A program made the translations under genes and the position numbers. From Polyangiales bacterium (GTDB taxonomy: Bacteria; Myxococcota_A; Polyangia; Polyangiales; Polyangiaceae): a stretch of DNA of 64,000 nt. The notes beneath the pieces are model-generated. The model saw only the letters and a program-made list of their open reading frames with translations, had not been told where the DNA came from and did no database searches. Location of the stretch: NCBI GenBank assembly GCA_038231275.1, contig JBBRLQ010000017.1, positions 131,530 to 195,529 of the forward strand. Direction: 5' to 3'. This document shows positions 2,943 through 44,367 of the stretch, one piece after another; the first letter of the stretch is position 1; each line of letters starts with the position of its first letter.

Positions 2943-5596
2943 GCTCTCTCCCAAAGGTGGCCATGCGAACGAAGCTCGGGTCGTGGATGGGCGTGGGCAT
3001 TCTCGTCGCCGCGTGCACGAGCTTGCCCGACGTCCCGCGGAACACGTGTGGCAACCACGTGCTCGAGACCGGCGAGGACTGCGACACGAACGTCGTCGGC
3101 ACAGACAAGACGGTCTGCCGCGCGGCCGGCGTCGGCGCGTGCCGATTCGACTGCACGCAAGGGACCGATGGGACGCGCCCGCCGTGCCCGACGGGATGGT
3201 CGTGCGGCAACGACGGCATTTGCCGCGCTGCGAAGGGCGAGTTCTCGTCGCTCGCCAATCAAATTCCGAGCGACGCTGTGCAGGTCGGGCTCGCGGACTA
3301 CGACGGCGACGGCCTCCAGGACGTGCGCGAGGTCTCGAAATCCGACGTCCGCATTCGCTACGGCGATCCGGCGGGGAACCTCGGGCAGACCTTCCTCATC
3401 TCGGCGCCGCGCTCGCACCCGGCGGCGGGCGTCCTCACGACCGATCCGCTCCTCGATCTCGCGTTCGAGTCGAGCACCGGCGCGATCGCGGTGTGGCGCG
3501 GCTCGTCGGATCGCACGATGTCGCCGACGACGTACCCCTCGATCCCCATCCCGACGACGCAGCCGGTCTCCTTCGTGGCCGCCGAGGTGCTCCGCAAGCG
3601 CGCCGGGATCGAGATCGTCACGCTCATCCCCGATCAAAAAGGAATCGCGGCCCTCGGGGTGCGCGGCGGCGACGAGTTGGACAGCACCATCATCACGCCG
3701 CTGTTCGTTCTCGCGAAGGGCGCGTCCGATCTCGCCATCCCGATGCGGTCCGCGCAGCTCGACGAGGATCCGGTGGCCTCGCCCTGTGACGAGATCTTGA
3801 TTGCCTTCAAGGCGTCCAACGAGATCGGCGTCTTCCCGCCGTGCCGCGGAGACAACCCGAACACCGTGCTCGGCACGCAGAAGACGCTCCCTTCGGTGAT
3901 CCTCCCTCCGGGGCGCACGGTCGCCGACGTCCTCATCAACGATCTCGACCGCGACGGGCACCTCGACCTCATGATCGTCGCCGACGAGAACGGGATCTTC
4001 TTCGCGCTGGGCCGCGGCGACGGCACCTTCGATGTCCCTATCGAGGCGCTCACCCTCGAGGCGGCGAGCCTCGTGCCGATCGACGTCGGCTTCCTGACCG
4101 CGGACGACGTCCTCGATATCGTCACGCCCGGCGGCATCTACCTCTTCACCCCGCCGCCCGGTCGCCCGCCGAAGGACGCAGGTGACAGCGGCGGTGGCGG
4201 TGGTGACGCGGGGAACGACGCGACGTTCGTGCCCACCACCATCGGCGTGAACTGGTCGGAAGCGCGCGTCGTGGACCTGAACGGCGACGGTCGTCCTGAC
4301 GTCGTCGCCGCGTCGCCGCACCGCCTCGACGTGCTCATCAACGCGGGCAATCGCCTGTTCGACCAGCACACCTACCGCATCGAAGGAACGCCCAGTCTCC
4401 TCTCGTTCGGCGACTTCGACGGCGATCTCGTGGTCGATTTGGCTTTTCGTGAGCGGTTCGACGACAAGAGCGCCGATTCGCTCACCGTCGCCTTCGGCGG
4501 CGCGAACGGCGTGCCCAACGAGCCGGTGAGCCAGGGCCGGATCGGGACCGTGAACGTCATCTCAACGGGAGCGCTCAGCGCGGATCTTGCCACGGTCGCC
4601 GCCGACGGCCTCACCGACATCGGCGCGCTCGCGACGACCTTGGACGGCAAGATCCAGTTCGTGTCCATTCTGAACGGCTCCACCGATCGACTCCTGCAAT
4701 CGCCGTTCGTGCTGACGCGGCTCAAGGGGGGCAATGGCAAGCAGATCCTCGCCTCGTCCGCGCACAGCTTCGCCGTCGGCCAGCTCACGTCGGACACGCA
4801 CCCCGATCTGGCGGTCGTCGGCGTCGAGCCGGAGATCAACGGCAGCTTCGACGTGCACACGTGGCTCGTGCCGGTGACCGGCGACGCGCAGATCGATCTG
4901 GCGACGGTCAACGCCGGTCCGGTCGTCGACACGTACACGCTCGACACCGGCTCGCGGGCACAGACGCGCGGGCTCTCGTGGATCGATCCGCACGTCGAGT
5001 CGCTCGCCGTGGAGCTCGACGCCAAGACGAGCGGCGGAACCGACGAGGTCCTCGTCCTGGCCCAACCCGTCGCCGAGAGCCACGACTCCGGCGCCCTCTT
5101 CGTCTTCAAGGCCTCGTCCGGCGCGTTCGCGGCCGCGTCGCGCGTGCCGGTGGGGCTCGACGCACCCGGCGGTACGGCGTGGAGCTTGAAAAAATCGGAC
5201 CTCGATGCCGACGGCGCCGTCGACGTGCTCATGACGTTCCACGACGCGAGCGGAATGCACGGCCAGGTCTTCTTCAACCTGCGGAGCGGTGGGCTCGATC
5301 CGGCGCCGGTGCGCGTGGAGGCCCCCGCCGGCACGCAGCTCCTCGCGTGGGCGGCGCTCAACGCGGACGCCGATCCCCGTCGCGAGATCGCCATGCTCAC
5401 CGACAAGGGCGTCTTCCTCGCGAAGCTCGACGCGGGCGCCCGCACTTTCACCGTCTCCACCAAGCCGCTCTCCGGCGTCGCGCCGACCGGCAACGTGATC
5501 GCGTGCGGCGACATCGACGGCGACGGCATCGACGACATGGCGATCGCCGGCGCGGGCGTGCTCCAGGTCTTCCGCGGACTCCCGGTGCTCCAATGA
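2939..5596 (+). CDS. FG-GAP/VCBS repeat lipoprotein
   Basis: Lipobox LVAAC, CGNHVLETGEDCD Cys motif, multiple DxDGDGxxD repeats (DYDGDGLQD, DLDRDGHLD, DLNGDGRPD, DFDGDLVVD, DIDGDGIDD); GTGA overlap with kinase. Confidence 0.85.
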   Translation: MSSLPKVAMRTKLGSWMGVGILVAACTSLPDVPRNTCGNHVLETGEDCDTNVVGTDKTVCRAAGVGACRFDCTQGTDGTRPPCPTGWSCGNDGICRAAKGEFSSLANQIPSDAVQVGLADYDGDGLQDVREVSKSDVRIRYGDPAGNLGQTFLISAPRSHPAAGVLTTDPLLDLAFESSTGAIAVWRGSSDRTMSPTTYPSIPIPTTQPVSFVAAEVLRKRAGIEIVTLIPDQKGIAALGVRGGDELDSTIITPLFVLAKGASDLAIPMRSAQLDEDPVASPCDEILIAFKASNEIGVFPPCRGDNPNTVLGTQKTLPSVILPPGRTVADVLINDLDRDGHLDLMIVADENGIFFALGRGDGTFDVPIEALTLEAASLVPIDVGFLTADDVLDIVTPGGIYLFTPPPGRPPKDAGDSGGGGGDAGNDATFVPTTIGVNWSEARVVDLNGDGRPDVVAASPHRLDVLINAGNRLFDQHTYRIEGTPSLLSFGDFDGDLVVDLAFRERFDDKSADSLTVAFGGANGVPNEPVSQGRIGTVNVISTGALSADLATVAADGLTDIGALATTLDGKIQFVSILNGSTDRLLQSPFVLTRLKGGNGKQILASSAHSFAVGQLTSDTHPDLAVVGVEPEINGSFDVHTWLVPVTGDAQIDLATVNAGPVVDTYTLDTGSRAQTRGLSWIDPHVESLAVELDAKTSGGTDEVLVLAQPVAESHDSGALFVFKASSGAFAAASRVPVGLDAPGGTAWSLKKSDLDADGAVDVLMTFHDASGMHGQVFFNLRSGGLDPAPVRVEAPAGTQLLAWAALNADADPRREIAMLTDKGVFLAKLDAGARTFTVSTKPLSGVAPTGNVIACGDIDGDGIDDMAIAGAGVLQVFRGLPVLQ

Positions 5597-6910: not shown

Positions 6911-8359
<1,449 letters not shown>

Positions 8360-8708
8360 GTCCGTGGCTGGAGAACGTAGGCGCCTTTGTCCGGCGCGTC
8401 GACCGCCGAAACGTGCCGGCACGCACGCCCACATCACCCGACGCTGGATTCCCACGGCAGCGGAACCGTGCGCTGAGGACGGCCAACCGATCGTCGGTGC
8501 GAGCGCCCGGTAAGTATGCAAGCCGGCAGAAACAGCGCTATTATTTGTGGCGAGAGACAAACCCTTCGTGCGTCCTCACAGCCTCTTTTGGAGCGCCTCC
8601 TTCTATCGTCCGAACGCCTCGCGTTCGCGGATTGCGCATGCGCGACCCGTGCATGGACCTTTCTTCGCGTGAGTCAGCCCGATCACCCGTTCCCTGGAGC
8701 CCCTCTCC

Positions 8709-28494: not shown

Positions 28495-28740
28495 TTGGAA
28501 TCCGACGAAAAGGCTGCCAGAGAAGAGCGGGCCGCGCGACGGCGCGCGACGTGGACCGGCGGTGTCGCGCGCTCGTTCGCCGAGCTCGAGGCGCTCGACC
28601 GCGACGCGTGGCGGGCGACGACCGGCGCCGACCGCGTGCGGATCATCTGGCCCCTCACTTGGGAAGCAATGGTGCTCGCTGGATACGATGGACCTCCACC
28701 CCGACTTCAGAGATCTGCTGGCGGAGTTCGTCGGCGCTGA
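28495..28740 (+). CDS. Small hypothetical protein, partner of downstream nucleotidyltransferase
   Basis: 81-aa ORF overlapping the NTase start; DRDAW..T..DR..IIW.L, PRLQRS pattern. Confidence 0.55.
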   Translation: MESDEKAAREERAARRRATWTGGVARSFAELEALDRDAWRATTGADRVRIIWPLTWEAMVLAGYDGPPPRLQRSAGGVRRR

Positions 28741-29152
28741 CGTTCGCTTCGTGGTGCTCGGCGGGTACGCCGTCGGTCACCATGCCAAGCCACGCGCGAC
28801 GAAAGATCTCGACCTCCTGCTGTCGCGCGAGGGCGACAACCTCCAGCGTGCAGCAACGGCTCTCGCGCGCTTCGGCGCATCGGGCTCCGTCGTCGCCGAC
28901 GTACGTTCGCTCGGGTCGGACGAGATCGTCTACATGGGCGTGCCCCCTGTTCACGTCGACATGATGGCGCGCGCAGACGGCATCGACACCGAGGAGGTGA
29001 TCGTGCGCGCAGTCAGGGTCGACGTCGGCGGGCTACTGATCCCGTTCATTTCGCTGGAGGACCTCATCGCCAACAAGCGCGCTGCGGGCCGGCCGCAGGA
29101 CCTGGCTGACGTCGCGTCGCTCGAGAGCCTCGCTGCGCGCGGCGAGGGGTAA
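28688..29152 (+). CDS. Nucleotidyltransferase-fold protein (DUF6036-like)
   Basis: DFRDLL..F..ADVRFVVLGGYAVGHHAKPRATKDLDL, DLIANKRAAGRPQDLADV. Confidence 0.8.
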   Translation: MDLHPDFRDLLAEFVGADVRFVVLGGYAVGHHAKPRATKDLDLLLSREGDNLQRAATALARFGASGSVVADVRSLGSDEIVYMGVPPVHVDMMARADGIDTEEVIVRAVRVDVGGLLIPFISLEDLIANKRAAGRPQDLADVASLESLAARGEG

Positions 29153-32618: not shown

Positions 32619-33257
32619 GTGCAATCCGCGGTCATACCTAGCGCCCCTATGATCGGTCAGGCCTCTGCCCGCATTCCCGCCTGTCCGGCGAGTGGCGTCC
32701 TCGCCGAGACGGGGGCGCGTGCGAAGGAGGAGGCGACGCGGCTCGAGGGCATCGTACGTGGGCATTACGCGTTCTTGTGGCGCTCGCTTCGTCGTCTCGG
32801 CGTGGCCGAGCGTGAGGTGGACGACGCGCTCCAGCGGGTCCTCGCCGTCCTCGCGCGCCGATTGGGTGAGATCGCGCCGGGTGCCGAGCGCAGTTTCCTC
32901 TTTCAAACCGCTCTGCGCGTCGCGGCGGAGATGCGCCGCGCAAACGCGCGCGGACGGCTTTCGTTCGACGAGGCCGCCGTCGACCGTGCGCGCGACGGCG
33001 CCCCTCTTCCTGACGAGGTTTTGGAGCGTCGTGAAGCGCGCGCGATCCTCGATGAGGTCCTGGACGCGCTCCCCCTCGACGTCCGCGCGGTCTTCGTTCT
33101 CTTCGAGCTCGAGCAGCTCACGACACCGGCGATCGCCGAGCTTCTCGCGATCCCTCCGGGCACCGTGAGCTCGCGGCTCCGGCGCGGCCGCGAGGAGTTC
33201 CAGACCCTCGCAAAACGACTCCGAGCCCAACGGGTGTTCGCGGGAGGTGCCACGTGA
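32619..33257 (+). CDS. ECF-family RNA polymerase sigma factor
   Basis: Region 2 (HYAFLWRSLRRLGV..VDDALQRV..SFLFQTA) and region 4 (LDALP..RAVFVLFELE..IAELL.IPPGTVSSRLRRGR). Confidence 0.93.
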   Translation: MQSAVIPSAPMIGQASARIPACPASGVLAETGARAKEEATRLEGIVRGHYAFLWRSLRRLGVAEREVDDALQRVLAVLARRLGEIAPGAERSFLFQTALRVAAEMRRANARGRLSFDEAAVDRARDGAPLPDEVLERREARAILDEVLDALPLDVRAVFVLFELEQLTTPAIAELLAIPPGTVSSRLRRGREEFQTLAKRLRAQRVFAGGAT

Positions 33258-34090
33258 GCGATCCGAAGCGACTCCTCGATGCCGACGTCTCGACGTTCGA
33301 ACGCTCCTTGCTCGCCTCGGGCGCAGGGGACCTCGCCCCGAAAGGCGGCGAAGACCGTGCCCTCGCGGCGCTCGGAATCGCGGGAGCCACCGCCGGAGTG
33401 ATCGCGGCCAGCGCAGCGGCCAAAGCCAGCGCGAGCGCGACGCCCGTAAGCGCCGCGGCGACGAAGATCGCTACGGCGGTACTCATCAAGTGGGCGAGCC
33501 TCGGCCTCATCGCGACCGCGGCCACGGCCGGCACGATCGTCTTCGTTGCGACCCCGGCGCAGCCTCCAGCGCAAATCGAGGCGCAATTCCCGATGCCGCC
33601 TCCCAGGCTCCAAGCGGCGCCAAGACCGAATGCGAAGCCCATCGGAACACCAATTCCAGAGCCGACGCCTGCGACGACGCCGACTCCGATCGCGACGCCG
33701 ACGCCGACGCCGACTCCGACTCCGATCGCGACTCCGACTCCGATCGCGACTCCGATCGCGACGCCGACTCCGACTCCGATCGCGACGCCGACTCCAACCC
33801 CGATCGTTGCGGCGGCGCCTCTGTATCCCGAGCTCACGGCGCTCGACCGCGCTCGCGACGCGCTTCGTGCGAGGGATGCCGCGGGGGCAATGCGTGCGCT
33901 GGAGGAGTATGACGCCCGCTTCCCGCGGGGTTCGCTCCGCGAAGAAGCAGATGTCGCGTGGATTCAAGCGCTCCTCGACCACGGAGACGTCGCCGCGGCA
34001 GAGGCTCGTGCGCGGGCCTTCCTCGCGGGGCGGCCGCAGAGCGCCTACACAAAACGTGTGCGGCAGCTCCTCGCGAAGACGAATCGGTGA
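33254..34090 (+). CDS. Putative anti-sigma factor (TM helix, Pro-Thr linker, C-terminal TPR)
   Basis: GTGA overlap with ECF; MSDPKRLL start; Ala-rich region, TM, (PT) repeat, ELTALDRARDAL..YDARFPRGSL.EEA..AFL...PQS. Confidence 0.8.
   Translation: MSDPKRLLDADVSTFERSLLASGAGDLAPKGGEDRALAALGIAGATAGVIAASAAAKASASATPVSAAATKIATAVLIKWASLGLIATAATAGTIVFVATPAQPPAQIEAQFPMPPPRLQAAPRPNAKPIGTPIPEPTPATTPTPIATPTPTPTPTPIATPTPIATPIATPTPTPIATPTPTPIVAAAPLYPELTALDRARDALRARDAAGAMRALEEYDARFPRGSLREEADVAWIQALLDHGDVAAAEARARAFLAGRPQSAYTKRVRQLLAKTNR
33662..33805 (+). repeat. Coding hexamer microsatellite (CCGACK)n encoding PTPTPIAT linker
   Basis: Tandem ccgacg/ccgact/ccgatc/gcgacg units. Confidence 0.85.
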
Positions 34091-34133
34091 TGAGGAGTCG
34101 CCCCTCCCGGCCATCCCCCCGCGGAGGAGACGA

Positions 34134-36053
34134 ATGTTGAAACCCACTACCCTTGCGCTGACGGTCGCCCTCGGAACGGCAATCGCCGCGACGGCGTGCG
34201 GCGGTCACGTGGCCCTCGGCGGGGCGGATGATGCCGGCGGAACCGGAAGCAATGGCGGAGACGCGGGCGCAGCCGGAACGACCGGCAACGGCCTGCCGAG
34301 CGCCAACGGCGGAACGATCGTCCCCGTAGACAACGCGCCGACGGGAACGCTCACCCAAGCGAGCAAGGTCGATCTGCTCCTCGTCATCGACAACTCCGCG
34401 TCGATGGGCGACAAGCAAGCCCTCCTCCGCAAAGCCGTTCCCGATCTGGTGACGCGACTCGTCGCCCCGAGCTGCGTGGACGCGAACGGCACCACGGTGG
34501 GAACGTCCGTAAACGGCACCTGCGCGCAAGGCAAGCTCGAGTTCGCGCCCGTTCGCGACATGCACGTCGGCGTCATCACGACCTCACTCGGCGGTCGCGG
34601 CGGCGACGTTTGCGACGGCACCGATCCCGTGGGCCAAGGCGCGAGGCGCTACGACAACGATCAGGCTCACCTTGTGATGAGAGACATCCCCCTCGCTTCC
34701 CGCTACCCCTCCGGCTTTCTCGTTTACGGAGACTTCGGCACCAAGGATCCCGCGCAACTTCGTGGCGACCTGCAGAACCTCATCGCCGGCGTGGGCGAGT
34801 ACGGCTGCGGTATCGAAGCGCAGCTGGAGAGCTGGTACCGGTTCCTCGTTCAGCCCGATCCCTACGCCAGCATCGTCGCCGATCCCGCGGACGGCCGCAG
34901 GAGGGCCCTCGCCGGGATTGATACGAGGCTACTTCAGCAGCGCCACGACTTCTTGCGTCCCGATTCGCTCGTCGCCATCGTCCTTTTGACGGACGAGGAC
35001 GATTCGGCGGAGGATCCGATGAGTGTCGGCGGACAGGGATGGGCGTACAGCATGAAGCGCTTTCCGGGTTCCGTCGGCGGCGGGGCGGCGCGTGGCACGT
35101 CGACCTGCGCAAGCAAGCCGACGGACAACGCTTGCACGTCGTGCGCCTTTCCAGGTGTTGGTTCGGACCCGTCGTGCCAACTCCCAGGGGACACGGACAC
35201 CGCGAGCGGGCAACCGCAGCTTGGTTACTACAAGGCGGCGGAAGACACGCTGAACACGCGCTACGTGCGAATGAAGAATCGCTACGGCGTTGATCCGCAG
35301 TTTCCGTTGTCCCGATACTTCCTTGGCCTCTCTTCGGCGAAGGTCCCCACTCGCGATACGGAGCATGGCGTTTCGCCCATCAACAACGCACCCGGGTACG
35401 TGGGCACGCCGGTCTGTACCAATCCTCTCTTCGCCGCGAGGTTGCCGACCGGCGCCGTGGGCGAGGACCTCTGCAACCTTCCTCCCGGGCCGCGCGCGGC
35501 GAACATGATCGTCTTTGCGACGATAACCGGCGTCCCCTCTCAGCTGCTCAATGGGGCGCTCGAGACGACCGCGTGGACGCGCATCGTGGGCGCCGATCCC
35601 CTCGCGTACGACTACTCCGGCGTCGATGTGCACATGATCCCATCGCAGACGCCGCGCGCCGGGCTGCCGGCCCCGGATGTGAGCGACACGGCCGATCCGA
35701 TGAGCGGCCGCGAATGGGACACCGGCGGCAGCGATTTGCAGTACGCGTGCACGTTCAAGCTGGCCGACCCCAAGGACTGCAAGGACCCTACATTCGCGGG
35801 CGCCTGTGATTGCACATCGGGCACCCCTCCCCTTCCGCCGCTCTGCGACGCTGCGGTTCGAACGACCCAGATCCGAGGCAAAGCGTACCCCGGGGTTCGC
35901 CAGCTCCAGCTCGCTCGCATGCTCGGCCCGCGCGCCGTGGCCGCGTCGATTTGCCCGCAGGACGTGCCGGAGGCCGACCCGCAGTACGGCTTTCGCCCTG
36001 CCCTCGAGAGTCTCGGCAACCGGATGGCGCGCTCGCTCGTCCCGCAGCAGTAA
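34134..36053 (+). CDS. vWA-like (MIDAS) domain lipoprotein
   Basis: GGAGGAG RBS, lipobox ATAC, KVDLLLVIDNSASM (DxSxS), GCGIEAQLE, FLRPDS..LLTDEDD. Confidence 0.8.
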   Translation: MLKPTTLALTVALGTAIAATACGGHVALGGADDAGGTGSNGGDAGAAGTTGNGLPSANGGTIVPVDNAPTGTLTQASKVDLLLVIDNSASMGDKQALLRKAVPDLVTRLVAPSCVDANGTTVGTSVNGTCAQGKLEFAPVRDMHVGVITTSLGGRGGDVCDGTDPVGQGARRYDNDQAHLVMRDIPLASRYPSGFLVYGDFGTKDPAQLRGDLQNLIAGVGEYGCGIEAQLESWYRFLVQPDPYASIVADPADGRRRALAGIDTRLLQQRHDFLRPDSLVAIVLLTDEDDSAEDPMSVGGQGWAYSMKRFPGSVGGGAARGTSTCASKPTDNACTSCAFPGVGSDPSCQLPGDTDTASGQPQLGYYKAAEDTLNTRYVRMKNRYGVDPQFPLSRYFLGLSSAKVPTRDTEHGVSPINNAPGYVGTPVCTNPLFAARLPTGAVGEDLCNLPPGPRAANMIVFATITGVPSQLLNGALETTAWTRIVGADPLAYDYSGVDVHMIPSQTPRAGLPAPDVSDTADPMSGREWDTGGSDLQYACTFKLADPKDCKDPTFAGACDCTSGTPPLPPLCDAAVRTTQIRGKAYPGVRQLQLARMLGPRAVAASICPQDVPEADPQYGFRPALESLGNRMARSLVPQQ

Positions 36054-36140
36054 GCCACGGGTCGAGGTCACCCAGAGCATATCCCGGCAGGCGCCAGCTC
36101 GAGACAGGCGGCGACGTCCAGTCGCAGCGAACGATCCTCT

Positions 36141-36164
36141 CGCAGCTGGAAACGCAGCTGAAAA
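36141..36164 (+). promoter_or_regulatory. 12-bp tandem repeat, candidate upstream activator site
   Basis: CGCAGCTGGAAA CGCAGCTGAAAA, about 135-160 bp upstream of the sigma54 -24 box. Confidence 0.5.
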
Positions 36165-36298
36165 TAGCCGCGCGCGAGCGAAGAGCGATCCATCAGCGCG
36201 AATATCCCACACGACCCAAATCGGGACCCGTGGCGGAATGTTCGACCGACCTCGTCGCACATCGAAAAACTTTTCCGTCGCCGCGCGCTTTTCGCCGG

Positions 36299-36314
36299 TG
36301 GCACATCGGCTGCA
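36299..36314 (+). promoter_or_regulatory. Sigma54 (-24/-12) promoter of RiPP operon
   Basis: TGGCAC-ATCGG-CTGCA, GG-N10-GC spacing, 51 bp before the precursor ATG. Confidence 0.65.
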
Positions 36315-36365
36315 ATTCGATCTGCTCGAACGGCGCGCGGCGCGCCTCACCACGAGGAGCAGATC

Positions 36366-36719
36366 ATGAACGACGGAAACAAGAAGGCGACGCTGAAAGA
36401 GCTCACGCCCATCGATCCGGATTTTCTCACGGTCGTCGTCGGAGGCTGCGCGAGCTCGATGAAGGTCATCGGGGTCTCGGACGACGGCGGAGGCGCGCAA
36501 GCCGACGGCGGCGGAGGTGACGGCGGCAGCGGTGACGGTGGCGGAGCCGGCGACGGTGGCGGAGGAGCAGGAGACGGCGGCGGCGGCGGCGACGGCGGCG
36601 GCGGCGACGGCGGCGGCGGCGGCGGCGACGGCGGCGACGGGGGCGGCGGCGGAGGGGATGGCGGCGGAGGGGACGGCGGCGGCGGCGACGGCGGCGGCGG
36701 CGGCGGCGGAGGGGCCTGA
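36366..36719 (+). CDS. Putative RiPP precursor peptide (double-Gly leader, Asp/Gly-repeat core)
   Basis: GAGGAG RBS; leader MNDGNKKATLKELTPIDPDFLTVVVGG; core CASSMKVIGVSD followed by 13 DGG units; first gene before RRE and rSAM genes. Confidence 0.85.
   Translation: MNDGNKKATLKELTPIDPDFLTVVVGGCASSMKVIGVSDDGGGAQADGGGGDGGSGDGGGAGDGGGGAGDGGGGGDGGGGDGGGGGGDGGDGGGGGGDGGGGDGGGGDGGGGGGGGA
36480..36716 (+). repeat. (GAC-GGC-GGC...) low-complexity repeat encoding D-G(2-8) units
   Basis: Direct reading of sequence. Confidence 0.9.
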
Positions 36720-36729
36720 TTCCCGCGCG

Positions 36730-36772
36730 GACGGACGCCCTCGCGCACGACCACGCGCGAGGGCGATCCGTC
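36730..36772 (+). terminator. Strong stem-loop between precursor and maturase genes (mRNA stabiliser/attenuator)
   Basis: GACGGACGCCCTCGCGC-loop8-GCGCGAGGGCGATCCGTC: 17-bp stem with 1-nt bulge; no U-tract. Confidence 0.65.
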
Positions 36773-36810
36773 GGAGACCAGATCGCCTCGCGACCACCAG
36801 GAGACCCACC

Positions 36811-37083
36811 ATGAGCACGTCACGCGTTCCCGTCCTCGCCAAGCACCTGCGCCTCCGCAAGCACGAGCCCGTCGCGTACAACGCGCGGCGCTCCGAGTTG
36901 CACAAGCTCAACGCGACCGCGTATGCGATCTTGGGTCTGGTCGATGGCGCGCGCACGGTCGAGCAGATCGCAGTCGCGTGCATGGACGGCGACGACGCGG
37001 CGGCCGTCGCGTTCGCGCCCAAGGTCGAGACGTTCCTCGAGCGGTGCAAGAGCCAAGACATGATCGCGTGGAGCGCGACGTGA
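36811..37083 (+). CDS. PqqD-family RiPP recognition element (stand-alone RRE)
   Basis: AGGAG RBS; 90 aa; HKLNATAYAILGLVDGARTVEQIA...VETFLERCKSQDMI matches the PqqD LNxTAxxIWxLxDGxRTVxxI pattern. Confidence 0.88.
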   Translation: MSTSRVPVLAKHLRLRKHEPVAYNARRSELHKLNATAYAILGLVDGARTVEQIAVACMDGDDAAAVAFAPKVETFLERCKSQDMIAWSAT

Positions 37084-37997
37084 CCGTCGCCGCGCCGTTC
37101 GCGGTCAGCTGGTATCTCACCAAGCGCTGCGATCTGTCGTGCCGCCACTGCTTCGTGCCGGTGGTGCGCCCCGACGACGCGCGCGGCGAGGTCGACACCG
37201 CCACGGCGAAGCGCTTCATCGCGTCGATCTGGAATTCGGACGTCTACATCCTCTCGTTCGCCGGCGGCGAGCCGATGCTCCGTCAGGATTTCTTCGAGCT
37301 CGCCCGCTTCGCGCGGGACCTCGGGCTCACGGTGCTCACGAGCACCAACGCGCAGCGCCTCGACGACGCCACGCTCGACCGCATCGTCGACGCCGGATTC
37401 CAGTCGCTCCAGGTGAGCCTCGACGGCCTCAGCGCGGCGCCCCACGAGGCGATCCGCGGCGCCGGCACGTTCGACGTCGCGCGCCGCGGGCTCGAGCTCA
37501 CGATGCGGCGGAGCGTGGGGGGGTTGAAGGTGGTCCTCGCCGTGGCGCTCCACCGGCGCATCCTGCCGGAGCTCGACGCGATCCTCGCGTTCGCGCGCGA
37601 AAGCGGCATTTTTTCGCTCAAGCTCCAGCCCGTCGCGCGGCCGTTCCGTTACGCCGACGGCACGCCTGGGCACATCTCGGAAGACGAAGCGGCGCGCGCG
37701 ATCGCCCACGCGAAGCGCGGCCTCGACGGCTCCCGCGTGCAGCTCGCCTACGCGAGCTGGGTCGACCTCTTCCTGCGCGGCGACGCCCGCCAGAGCTGCG
37801 CGCTCGGTCTCCGCACCGCCATCGTCGACGCCGAAGGGCGCGTCTCGACGTGCGACGAGATGCCCGGCACAGGCGACGCCATCGGCGGCTCTTTCTCTGA
37901 CGCGTGGGAGGCCGCCGTCCGCGAGGAGCGCGCCCGCCCGCGCTGCGGTTGCTACGCGTTTCGGGATCGCAAACGGCGTCTACTGGAGGTGGCGTGA
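37080..37997 (+). CDS. Radical SAM enzyme with truncated SPASM (Twitch-like) domain
   Basis: GTGA overlap; CDLSCRHC, FAGGEPML, STNA, VSLDG..HEAIRGAGTF; SC..GRVSTC..CGC at C-terminus. Confidence 0.92.
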   Translation: MTVAAPFAVSWYLTKRCDLSCRHCFVPVVRPDDARGEVDTATAKRFIASIWNSDVYILSFAGGEPMLRQDFFELARFARDLGLTVLTSTNAQRLDDATLDRIVDAGFQSLQVSLDGLSAAPHEAIRGAGTFDVARRGLELTMRRSVGGLKVVLAVALHRRILPELDAILAFARESGIFSLKLQPVARPFRYADGTPGHISEDEAARAIAHAKRGLDGSRVQLAYASWVDLFLRGDARQSCALGLRTAIVDAEGRVSTCDEMPGTGDAIGGSFSDAWEAAVREERARPRCGCYAFRDRKRRLLEVA

Positions 37998-43735: not shown

Positions 43736-43975
43736 ATGGCAGCCGCGACGATCACGAGCAAGGGGCAGCTCACCGTACCGCGGGAAATCCGGGCCGCGCT
43801 CGGCGTTGGCCCGGGCGATCGCCTCGCTTTCCGGATCCACGAGGACGGGAGCGTCACCGTCGAGCCCGAGACGGTCGACCTGCGGACCCTCCGCGGATCG
43901 ATTCGGCCGAAGGTCCGCGGTGTGACGATCGCGGCCATGAACGACGCGATTCGTCGCTCCGCCGCCGGTCGATGA
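43736..43975 (+). CDS. vapB: AbrB/MazE/SpoVT-family antitoxin
   Basis: ATITSKGQLTVPREIRAALGVGPGDRLAF. Confidence 0.92.
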   Translation: MAAATITSKGQLTVPREIRAALGVGPGDRLAFRIHEDGSVTVEPETVDLRTLRGSIRPKVRGVTIAAMNDAIRRSAAGR

Positions 43976-44367
43976 TCGCTCTCGATACGAACGTCCTGGT
44001 CCGGTTCATCGTCGATGACGACAAGCACCAGGCGGCCCGAGCTCTCAAGCTGATCGAGCGGGCGATGGAGAGCCAAGAAGCCCTGTTCGTTTCGGACATC
44101 GTCTTGTGCGAGTTCGTATGGGTGCTCTCGGCCAGCTACCGGGTCGCTCGCGCCGAGATCGCGGCGACGTTGGGACGCTTGGTTCAGTCGAGGCAGCTCT
44201 CGTTCACCGACGGTGAGCGCGTGCGCCGGGCCACGGACGCCTTCGCGAAGGGCCGCGGCGACTTCGCGGACTACTTGATTCGTGAGCACGCACGCGACGC
44301 GGGCTGTACCGCCGTCGCGACCTTCGACCGCGCGCTGCTCAAGGACACGCTATTCGTCGCGCCGTGA
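43972..44367 (+). CDS. vapC: PIN-domain toxin VapC
   Basis: ALDTNVLVR, VLCEFVWVL, DFADYLI, TFDR; ATGA overlap. Confidence 0.93.
   Translation: MIALDTNVLVRFIVDDDKHQAARALKLIERAMESQEALFVSDIVLCEFVWVLSASYRVARAEIAATLGRLVQSRQLSFTDGERVRRATDAFAKGRGDFADYLIREHARDAGCTAVATFDRALLKDTLFVAP

Follow-up and report, generated by a model that had tools for sequence, protein, structure and literature searches.

A probable RiPP precursor with a long Asp/Gly tail, encoded upstream of a PqqD-like protein and two radical SAM enzymes in a Polyangiales genome

A 64,000-nucleotide stretch of a Polyangiales genome (contig JBBRLQ010000017.1; this whole stretch is called the window) contains a short open reading frame (ORF) at positions 36366..36719, most of which encodes little else than glycine and aspartate. 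The locus raises the question of whether such a peptide is a genuine substrate of the enzymes encoded beside it and, if so, which of its parts they modify. A sequence-only reading had proposed a precursor of the kind that gives rise to peptides synthesized ribosomally and modified post-translationally (RiPPs), with a double-glycine leader, a core starting with Cys and an array of D-G-G units open to repeated chemistry. The idea of a RiPP-type precursor is borne out by the genes for a PqqD-like RiPP recognition element (RRE) and for two radical S-adenosylmethionine (SAM) enzymes, here rSAM1 and rSAM2, that lie downstream of the ORF. The ORF is a genuine, previously uncalled precursor gene. It is probably the substrate gene of a rare RiPP system that combines a stand-alone PqqD-like protein with two paralogous radical SAM enzymes, the tail being no design of the family.

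Translation confirms every count of the earlier reading, namely a leader of 27 residues, a core of 90 residues from the Cys onwards, 13 D-G-G units and Gly runs of 2 to 8. The leader, MNDGNKKATLKELTPIDPDFLTVVVGG, is followed by C28-ASSMKVIGVSD and then by a 78-residue tract composed of 58 Gly, 13 Asp, 5 Ala, 1 Gln and 1 Ser. Eight distinct relatives of 47-51 aa were found with sequence profiles and by looking up protein clusters, and in all of them an invariant KRLRPLPPEY is followed by seven mostly hydrophobic residues and then by C-x-S-[S/A]. Their cores are CASSSNARVK and CASSSRARVK (P0028 and P0027, from the homologous locus L001 described below), CASSMSPR (P0029/P0040), CASSLSTRA (P0030), CVSATRCVLY (P0031), CVSATRCVY (P0036), CTSATRCVY (P0037) and CLSASRAY (P0038). 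The window peptide is in register with these relatives, reading K-E-L-T-P-I-D-P-D-F, seven residues and C-A-S-S, and by its sequence its leader is a divergent one of the family. The Cys, which had been placed directly after the putative cut, is invariant in nine of nine members, as are the Ser at +2, the Ser or Ala at +3 and an acidic residue nine positions ahead of the Cys. This Cys stands at position 28 in the window peptide and at 40-43 in the relatives.

The tail behaves differently from the head. All eight relatives end 8-10 residues from the Cys (Cys counted), compared with 90 in the window peptide, and none of them carries a D/G tract. When the CASSM start and the DGG array are compared across homologues, as had been suggested, the start is kept in the form C-x-S-[S/A] and the array is not. 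Since C-x-S-[S/A] is present in all relatives and the tract in none, the conserved target would be the Cys/Ser head rather than the DGG array, for which the role of a conserved site of chemistry had been envisaged. As far as these alignments indicate, emphasis should be placed on the C-x-S head.

The association of these small peptides with radical SAM genes is not confined to the window. A one-genome-per-species scan revealed a sole homologous locus, L001, in a Polyangiaceae metagenome-assembled genome (G488). It comprises, in this order, a tandem pair of small ORFs (51 and 49 aa), PqqD, rSAM1, rSAM2 with its SPASM domain, HlyD and a Peptidase_C39-ABC transporter, with identities to the window proteins of 40% for PqqD, 41% for rSAM1 and 54% for rSAM2. 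Elsewhere, P0030 and the rSAM2 relative P0004 are both assigned to a 4128-bp contig, while P0031, P0037 and the rSAM2 relative P0006 are all assigned to a 29660-bp contig. Together with the two L001 peptides, these shared contigs tie five of the eight relatives to homologous radical SAM genes. No description of the family was found in the literature searched, and its leader motif, searched as text, occurs in 0 papers, supplements lying outside this search.

Further searches added little to the family. An exhaustive profile search gave seven proteins at E <=0.001, of which three are true members and P0033-P0035 are unrelated repeat proteins; P0032 (998 aa, 10 stretches) was left out of this sorting. 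A search with a profile, restricted to precursors of more than 90 aa, returned nothing at E <=10 among 542 candidates, which is weak evidence. The 90% cluster of P0031, which groups precursors of 48-50 aa, also contains a 385-aa protein, P0039. Judged by eye, this is an Fe-S protein unrelated to them, and its presence there seems to reflect faulty clustering.

In DNA of about 70% GC, with 139 ORFs of at least 40 aa in 18 kb, chance ORFs are abundant; an open frame by itself therefore carries no weight and the case for a gene is contextual. A run of five genes in the same direction starts 92 nt downstream of the precursor, the start of each later gene overlapping the stop of the one before it, with GTGA overlaps at 37080, 39145 and 40209 and a 1-nt overlap at 37997, and the starts chosen for all five are exact matches to independently called proteins in the protein collection. 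In L001, a perfect 19-bp GC hairpin stands a few nt past the stop of either precursor (L001:4276-4330 and 4810-4860), and the hairpin after the window ORF is thus the conserved end of a precursor unit. The 101-nt fold that contains the latter has an energy of -47.4 kcal/mol (z -4.44), with 0 of 200 shuffles as stable. No T-run follows this hairpin, and a scan of 35900-37000 for promoter and terminator consensus sequences gave 0 sites. The coordinates of all these features are collected in the table.

Features of the precursor gene and the operon in the window
Feature	Coordinates	Strand	Basis
Ribosome-binding site GAGGAG, 6 nt ahead of ATG	36354..36359	+	read from sequence
Precursor ORF, ATG start, 117 codons	36366..36719	+	read from sequence and translation
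Leader, 27 codons, K-x-L-x-P-I-x-P-D-F inside, VVVGG end	36366..36446	+	translation, alignment with relatives, profile of eight relatives over residues 4-33
Conserved core head C28-A-S-S31 (motif C-x-S-[S/A]), then MKVIGVSD	36447..36482	+	conservation in nine of nine members
Asp/Gly tract, 78 codons, 13 D and 58 G, GGC/GAC low-complexity	36483..36716	+	translation, repeat analysis; absent from eight of eight relatives
TGA stop codon of precursor	36717..36719	+	sequence
GC-rich hairpin, 17 bp, 11 nt past stop	36730..36772	+	folding; position as for the 19-bp hairpins after both L001 precursors
PqqD-like RRE, 90 aa	36811..37083	+	Pfam PqqD 29.1 bits against a cut-off of 23.4; 40% identity to L001 homologue
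rSAM1, 305 aa, CxxxCxxC and four C-terminal Cys (truncated SPASM)	37080..37997	+	Pfam Radical_SAM 1e-17; GTG start overlaps PqqD stop
rSAM2 with full SPASM, 383 aa	37997..39148	+	Pfam Radical_SAM 6.4e-29, SPASM 4.2e-8; Cys pattern in alignment
DUF455 ferritin-like protein, 355 aa	39145..40212	+	Pfam DUF455 7e-31; GTGA start overlaps rSAM2 stop
Two-domain SagB-like nitroreductase-family protein, 449 aa	40209..41558	+	Pfam Nitroreductase 35.6 bits against 23.5; GTGA overlaps DUF455 stop

Evidence that the ORF belongs to the family also comes from a hidden Markov model (HMM) built on the eight relatives, the window ORF being left out. The ORF matches it at 14.5 bits (E 0.18) and ranks second among 137,464 stop-to-stop segments of the genome. 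The first-ranked segment, on contig C19, is a chance match that lacks a start codon and has a poor frame. For an ORF specified beforehand by its position, such a rank is strong support for family membership as judged by sequence, which the score alone would not provide. The alternative is that the ORF is no gene at all but a chance frame in GC-rich DNA, running over an intergenic (GGC)n microsatellite upstream of PqqD. The frequency of long chance ORFs given above, the four of six frames that are open through the repeat and the lack of any Pfam or NCBIfam family match would fit this explanation. It is very improbable in view of the ribosome-binding site and ATG, the leader and C-x-S-S in register with the relatives, the rank in the HMM search and the position and hairpin conserved in L001. 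A family regular expression also occurs only once in the genome, although it was written with the window ORF in view.

The two radical SAM enzymes are paralogous to each other (28% identity, E 2e-29), and no NCBIfam equivalog reaches its cut-off for either of them. For rSAM2, the scores against the cut-offs are 191.5/500 bits for AhbD, 155.7/265 for MftC (TIGR03962), 130.8/650 for WgkB, 116.3/625 for StsB and 102.7/381 for PqqE, while rSAM1 scores 109.9 against 265 for the same MftC model. The nearest solved structures by sequence are BlsE, SkfB and PqqE (E 1e-12 to 1e-16), with SkfB among the best matches at E 3.1e-14 and PqqE the best for rSAM1 at E 1.9e-13. As all curated families are unreached, the chemistry cannot be read from homology.

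The last two genes of the operon, encoding the DUF455 protein and the nitroreductase, are both absent from L001. In the DUF455 protein, the diiron ligands E172, E204/H207, E253 and E286/H289 (an E / ExxH / E / ExxH set) are invariant in the alignment, and the predicted structure is a ferritin-like bundle with a mean predicted local distance difference test (pLDDT) score of 63.9. A Foldseek search with this model found no match at E <=0.001; weak fold matches to aldehyde-deformylating oxygenase (the best, E 5.2e-3) and to bacterioferritin were seen. The nitroreductase matches the SagB domain model TIGR03605 at 35.7 bits, below the cut-off of 78.4, and PDB entry 3eo7 at E 3e-10. Protein atlas clusters carry only the generic labels 'DUF455' and 'nitroreductase' for the two proteins. 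No known function for DUF455 was found in the literature, and among the papers listed none concerns peptide modification to judge by titles and abstract openings. Three related genomes contain only weak relatives of the operon DUF455, paralogues at 27-31% identity, and no relative of the nitroreductase.

All four genomes searched, that of the window and three related ones, also encode a separate, well-conserved DUF455 paralogue of some 265 aa (G000:C2:499488-499916, L017; G236:C62, L016; G471:C707, L014; G488:C215, L015). Since this widespread paralogue is just 27-31% identical to the operon protein, the operon copy is a divergent extra.

A working model can be drawn from these components. The PqqD-like protein would bind the leader stretch K-x-L-x-P-[LI]-x-P-[ED]-[YF] and would present the residues that follow to both radical SAM enzymes. 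To judge from conservation, both enzymes would act on the invariant C-x-S-[S/A] head, here C28-A-S-S31. By analogy, the likeliest chemistry would be a radical cross-link centred on Cys/Ser, either a Cys-derived thioether or another one, together with a second radical step; the thioether itself, proposed by the same analogy, is possible rather than probable. A C39-type peptidase would remove the leader after G26-G27. The L001 cluster encodes such a peptidase-transporter. None is present among the window ORFs scanned, and the sole C39 peptidase-ABC transporter of the genome is on another contig, C28. The Asp/Gly tract would have grown as a triplet expansion between the conserved head and the stop with its hairpin, and the DUF455 and nitroreductase genes may be cluster-specific tailoring genes.

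The removal of the leader deserves separate consideration. According to an excerpt of PMC10885120, leaders processed by C39 peptidases carry GG, GA or GS at -2/-1, with hydrophobic residues occupying -4, -7 and -12 (-15). The double-glycine motif noticed in the earlier reading is canonical by this rule in the window leader itself, which has GG at -2/-1, V-4, L-7, I-12 and L-15. It is, however, not conserved, as none of the eight relatives has GG, GA or GS ahead of the Cys. Their residues at this place are VS, AS, SS or AG and they have prolines at -10, -11 and -13, which makes the site non-canonical in the family as a whole. The likeness to C39-processed double-glycine leaders also extends to L001, where the Peptidase_C39-ABC and HlyD genes lie beside the radical SAM genes, whereas the window cluster is without a transporter. 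In L001 the transporter is encoded, yet the cleavage site is non-canonical. From the aligned sequences, a cut directly ahead of the invariant Cys is plausible across the family.

Another type of cleavage ahead of Cys is known from lipoproteins, of which the lipobox residue pattern preceding the Cys is the signature. The earlier reading had raised this alternative for VGGC. The peptide would then be a small lipoprotein whose VVGG-C lipobox is cut by signal peptidase II ahead of Cys28, followed by lipidation of the Cys, and lipobox-like residues are indeed found in all members (V-G-G-C here; I-V-S-C, I-A-S-C, I-S-S-C and I-A-G-C in the relatives). However, in nine of nine members just 8 uncharged residues stand between the Cys and a stretch with D/E and prolines, against 18 in a clear lipoprotein signal found elsewhere in the window. 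The Cys of the relatives lies as late as position 40-43, and mature parts would be only 8-10 aa. Linkage to PqqD and radical SAM genes is consistent among the peptides, with a C39 transporter in addition in L001. On their sequences a lipoprotein identity is unlikely, and the probability left to it is close to negligible.

The origin of the tail can be read in part from its codons. The tract comprises 41 GGC, 12 GAC, 17 Gly codons of other kinds and 8 remaining codons, and departures from GGC at codon positions 1, 2 and 3 number 2, 19 and 21. Tandem Repeats Finder reports a sole period, of 3, at 36506-36709 (68 copies, 75% matches). The Gly runs of the 13 D-G-G units measure 3, 4, 2, 3, 4, 5, 4, 6, 2, 6, 4, 4 and 8 residues. 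Spacing from one Asp to the next is irregular, from 3 to 7 residues, and with period 3 alone detected there are no fixed-length cassettes. To judge by these patterns, the tract looks like an in-frame GGC/GAC triplet expansion, and its most likely role is that of an acidic, disordered follower which stays passive and is either tolerated or trimmed. RTX-type calcium-binding repeats, which are nonapeptides of the form GGxGxDxUx, were considered and rejected: the nonapeptide period is absent (period 3 only, D spacing 3-7) and no Pfam match was found at E <=0.01.

Such tails are rare in the genome. A six-frame scan of its 9.28 Mb gave two D/G-rich stretches of at least 30 aa, of which that of the precursor is the longest (71 aa by the scan rule). 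A second D/G-tailed peptide, of 140 aa, is encoded on contig C12 (G000 contig C12:70517-70936, minus strand, the same as L012:8518-8937, minus strand). It has a textbook double-glycine leader, MRKYRELEVEDLDQVHGG, ending in DLDQVHGG, and the genes beside it encode TPR/DUF2135 and VIT-VWA proteins but no RiPP enzymes. A homologue in a genome of the same genus (L021, G236:C72) is 93% identical over residues 1-131, and its tail differs in length and sequence. Since the tail differs while the rest is 93% identical, such tails change fast, recur in the lineage and evolve by length change.

A different view of the tract is that it is the true substrate array, in which repeated Asp or Gly residues would be modified by two proteins encoded only in this cluster, the SagB-like flavoprotein and diiron DUF455. 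Candidate reactions would be Asp beta-hydroxylation and Gly alpha-oxidation or dehydrogenation, giving a polyanionic tail on a head modified by the radical SAM enzymes. Several features are in keeping with this view: the tail is specific to this cluster and so are both extra genes, these genes are translationally coupled to the radical SAM genes, all DUF455 diiron ligands are kept, and the tail lies within the transcription unit, upstream of the conserved hairpin. The correlation, however, comes from one genome, the Asp spacing is irregular with no recognition sequence between units, and the tail occurs in 0 of 8 relatives. Moreover, the D/G tail on contig C12 of the same genome has no such enzymes adjacent to it, and no function of DUF455 was found in the literature, with none on peptide modification among the papers listed, by titles and abstract openings. 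The substrate-array explanation is consequently judged unlikely. That the tail, DUF455 and nitroreductase arrived jointly as a functional add-on, which iteratively modifies the 13 Asp/Gly units, is a doubtful proposition to which we give little credence. Only this cluster has both the tail and the two genes, which keeps chemistry directed at the tail alive as a minority reading.

The tract might also be, wholly or in part, an artefact or a product of decay, arising either from mis-sizing of a 204-bp triplet repeat by short reads at about 8x or from the loss of an ancestral stop, after which translation would have run on into a GC-rich repeat; the long form would then be without a function of its own. 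Logan contigs of run X1, the public run with the best coverage, a sediment metagenome and perhaps the sample of origin, end at 36314 and restart at 36774 with depths of 8.2-8.7. No Logan contig of this run covers 36315-36773 or bridges it, which is no evidence either way on the repeat, and runs X2, X6 and X12 provide only short pieces, all outside the precursor ORF. Given this gap, the exact repeat length and frame rest on one short-read assembly. The termination of all eight relatives 8-10 residues from the Cys and the absence of the ORF from the called proteins would also suit an artefact or decay. On the other hand, the frame is open over all 78 codons and the enzyme genes are intact. The repeat is imperfect, its longest pure Gly run being 8 codons, so that most 31-mers are anchored. 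The stop lies 11 nt ahead of the hairpin, which is about the L001 distance (by eye on folded sequences), and the D/G tract thus sits between the conserved head and the conserved hairpin end. A frame that is kept, with a stop just ahead of a conserved hairpin, argues that the gene end is real. An origin of the tail by artefact or decay is therefore held to be improbable.

In run X2, a sediment metagenome from another study, a 267-nt contig matches window positions 36969-37232, at the PqqD/rSAM1 junction, with 5 differences, and a close strain of the operon therefore exists elsewhere.

The distribution of rSAM2 indicates how rare the system is. A search covered 5.8 billion protein clusters, and the 8000 candidates sharing most words with rSAM2 were scored. 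Among these, 25 proteins reach E <=1e-30, nine of them at 41-64% identity and the next at 33%. In the rSAM2 tree, the window protein groups with P0002 and P0003 (63-64% identity, support 99/99), and the clade with documented short precursors is separate (support 98/99). Neither P0002 nor P0003 was found in the two DNA collections scanned, although both carry the scanned pattern. In overlapping genome samples, rSAM2 matches were found in 1 of 401 genomes of the order (E <=1e-40; the own genome only), 2 of 383 of the family (E <=1e-60; the own genome and G488, which carries L001), 1 of 401 of the phylum and 1 of 401 of the class (both at E <=1e-60), so that the samples gave no genome with the system other than these two. 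A metagenome scan with the rSAM2 alignment gave six loci at 25-45% identity, of which inspection covered L003 and L004 and left out L005-L008 (25-27%). In both inspected loci, radical SAM genes lie beside Lrp/AsnC-like ORFs (heme d1/Ahb-like by eye), with neither PqqD nor a C-x-S peptide, and they were rejected as homologues of the cluster.

Several of these observations weigh against a genuine precursor whose tail is incidental. The ORF is missing as a called gene from the protein collection, and was thus apparently never called before. By sequence alone the leader match is weak, and a chance ORF on contig C19 scores alike. Relatives with a cluster-encoded C39 peptidase have sites outside the GG/GA/GS set given in the excerpt of PMC10885120. 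In addition, window rSAM2 groups with P0002/P0003 rather than with the short-precursor clade, and the tail may be normal in its own subclade. Its absence is demonstrated only against the sister clade of window rSAM2. With the P0002/P0003 precursors outside the comparison, the tail is proven to be private to this genome only against that clade. Finally, the tail co-occurs with DUF455 and the nitroreductase, for which a functional link fits as well as coincidence.

Comparison with known systems places the cluster within RRE-dependent radical SAM RiPPs. The window has the general features of this kind, which are a small co-directional ORF, a PqqD-like RRE and a CxxxCxxC enzyme with SPASM or twitch Cys. 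It also has those of the new family, with the leader motif, seven residues and C-x-S-[S/A] beside PqqD, rSAM1 and rSAM2 homologues; its core departs from the short ones of the family (90 residues against 8-10). The window is thus an unusual variant of a new family within a known RiPP kind, distinguished by its long acidic tail, its DUF455 and nitroreductase genes and its lack of a transporter.

Sactipeptide and ranthipeptide systems resemble the cluster in several respects. Their precursor is small and lies directly upstream, they use a PqqD-type recognition element, and their CxxxCxxC radical SAM enzymes have auxiliary-cluster Cys of the SPASM or twitch-like type. An invariant Cys starts the core, and export by a C39 peptidase-ABC transporter is paralleled in the relative L001. 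The solved structure of SkfB is also among the best matches. They differ in that the curated maturase models are unreached (as with StsB), in the single invariant Cys and the very short cores of the relatives, and in the addition of DUF455 and nitroreductase, without a transporter, to the window cluster. A system with two maturases is known in thuricin CD (TrnC/TrnD).

Mycofactocin (MftA/MftB/MftC) and PQQ (PqqA/PqqD/PqqE) provide another parallel, with a stand-alone PqqD-like chaperone, and a SPASM radical SAM enzyme that acts close to the C-terminal end of a very short peptide. The top NCBIfam matches are the MftC, PqqE, NirJ and AhbD models, and PqqE is the best solved structure for rSAM1. 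However, the scores are far below the cut-offs, as detailed above for rSAM2, the window cluster has two radical SAM paralogues, and no MftD/E/F or PqqB/C was found in the Pfam scan of the neighbourhood. The residues concerned are a C-terminal Val-Tyr in mycofactocin and a Glu/Tyr pair in PQQ, and the core here is C-x-S-[S/A] instead.

In the streptococcal RaS-RiPPs (streptide, tryglysin/WgkB), as described in excerpts of PMC9389541 and PMC11851443, a conserved motif of 3-4 residues lies in a short precursor, one radical SAM/SPASM enzyme has RRE function and export occurs by a peptidase-transporter. The WgkB model matches rSAM2, although well below its cut-off. These systems belong to another phylum (the genome here is of the Myxococcota type), their motif is aromatic/basic rather than Cys/Ser, and the second radical SAM paralogue is particular to the present cluster.

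The analogy with microcin B17 drawn in the earlier reading fails. A Gly-rich peptide with Cys and Ser and a SagB/McbC-like nitroreductase-family gene in the operon do recall microcin B17 and other thiazole/oxazole-modified microcins. However, the locus has no YcaO or cyclodehydratase (no YcaO was found among the ORFs of 27.6-47.3 kb of the window, and the sole one of the genome is on contig C43), the SagB domain stays below its cut-off, and the Gly tract carries Asp instead of Cys/Ser and is absent from the relatives. A TldD/PmbA-family metallopeptidase is encoded at 6914-8575 on the minus strand, 28 kb from the cluster, and is probably a housekeeping protein; this family processes microcin B17.

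The surroundings of the cluster are of mixed character. Upstream, in the region of 32619-34090 (plus strand), an extracytoplasmic function (ECF) sigma factor is followed by a YfiO/TPR-like ORF. A large ORF at 33546-36053 (plus strand) stops 313 nt ahead of the precursor; an internal Met start gives it a clear lipoprotein signal (…AIAATAC), and it has a faint match to MIDAS adhesins. The wider flanks contain toxin-antitoxin-type genes, with an AbiEii/DUF2204-like nucleotidyltransferase ORF at 28562-29152 and a PIN-domain ORF at 43972-44367 (both on the plus strand).

The family described here is a rare RiPP kind uncaptured by curated models, characterized by a PqqD-like RRE, two radical SAM paralogues, the KRLRPLPPEY leader motif and a C-x-S-[S/A] core of 8-10 aa. 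Should the minority reading be true, the peptide would carry a polyanionic, heavily modified follower on a cross-linked Cys/Ser head, a RiPP architecture undescribed so far, and DUF455, whose function is likewise undescribed, would receive its first one. For new radical SAM chemistry on Cys/Ser, the tiny and well-conserved cores of the family are an easily testable substrate. The window version, in which the same head is joined to a 78-residue tail and DUF455 and nitroreductase take the place of the transporter, is a natural experiment that can reveal whether such enzymes tolerate low-complexity followers.

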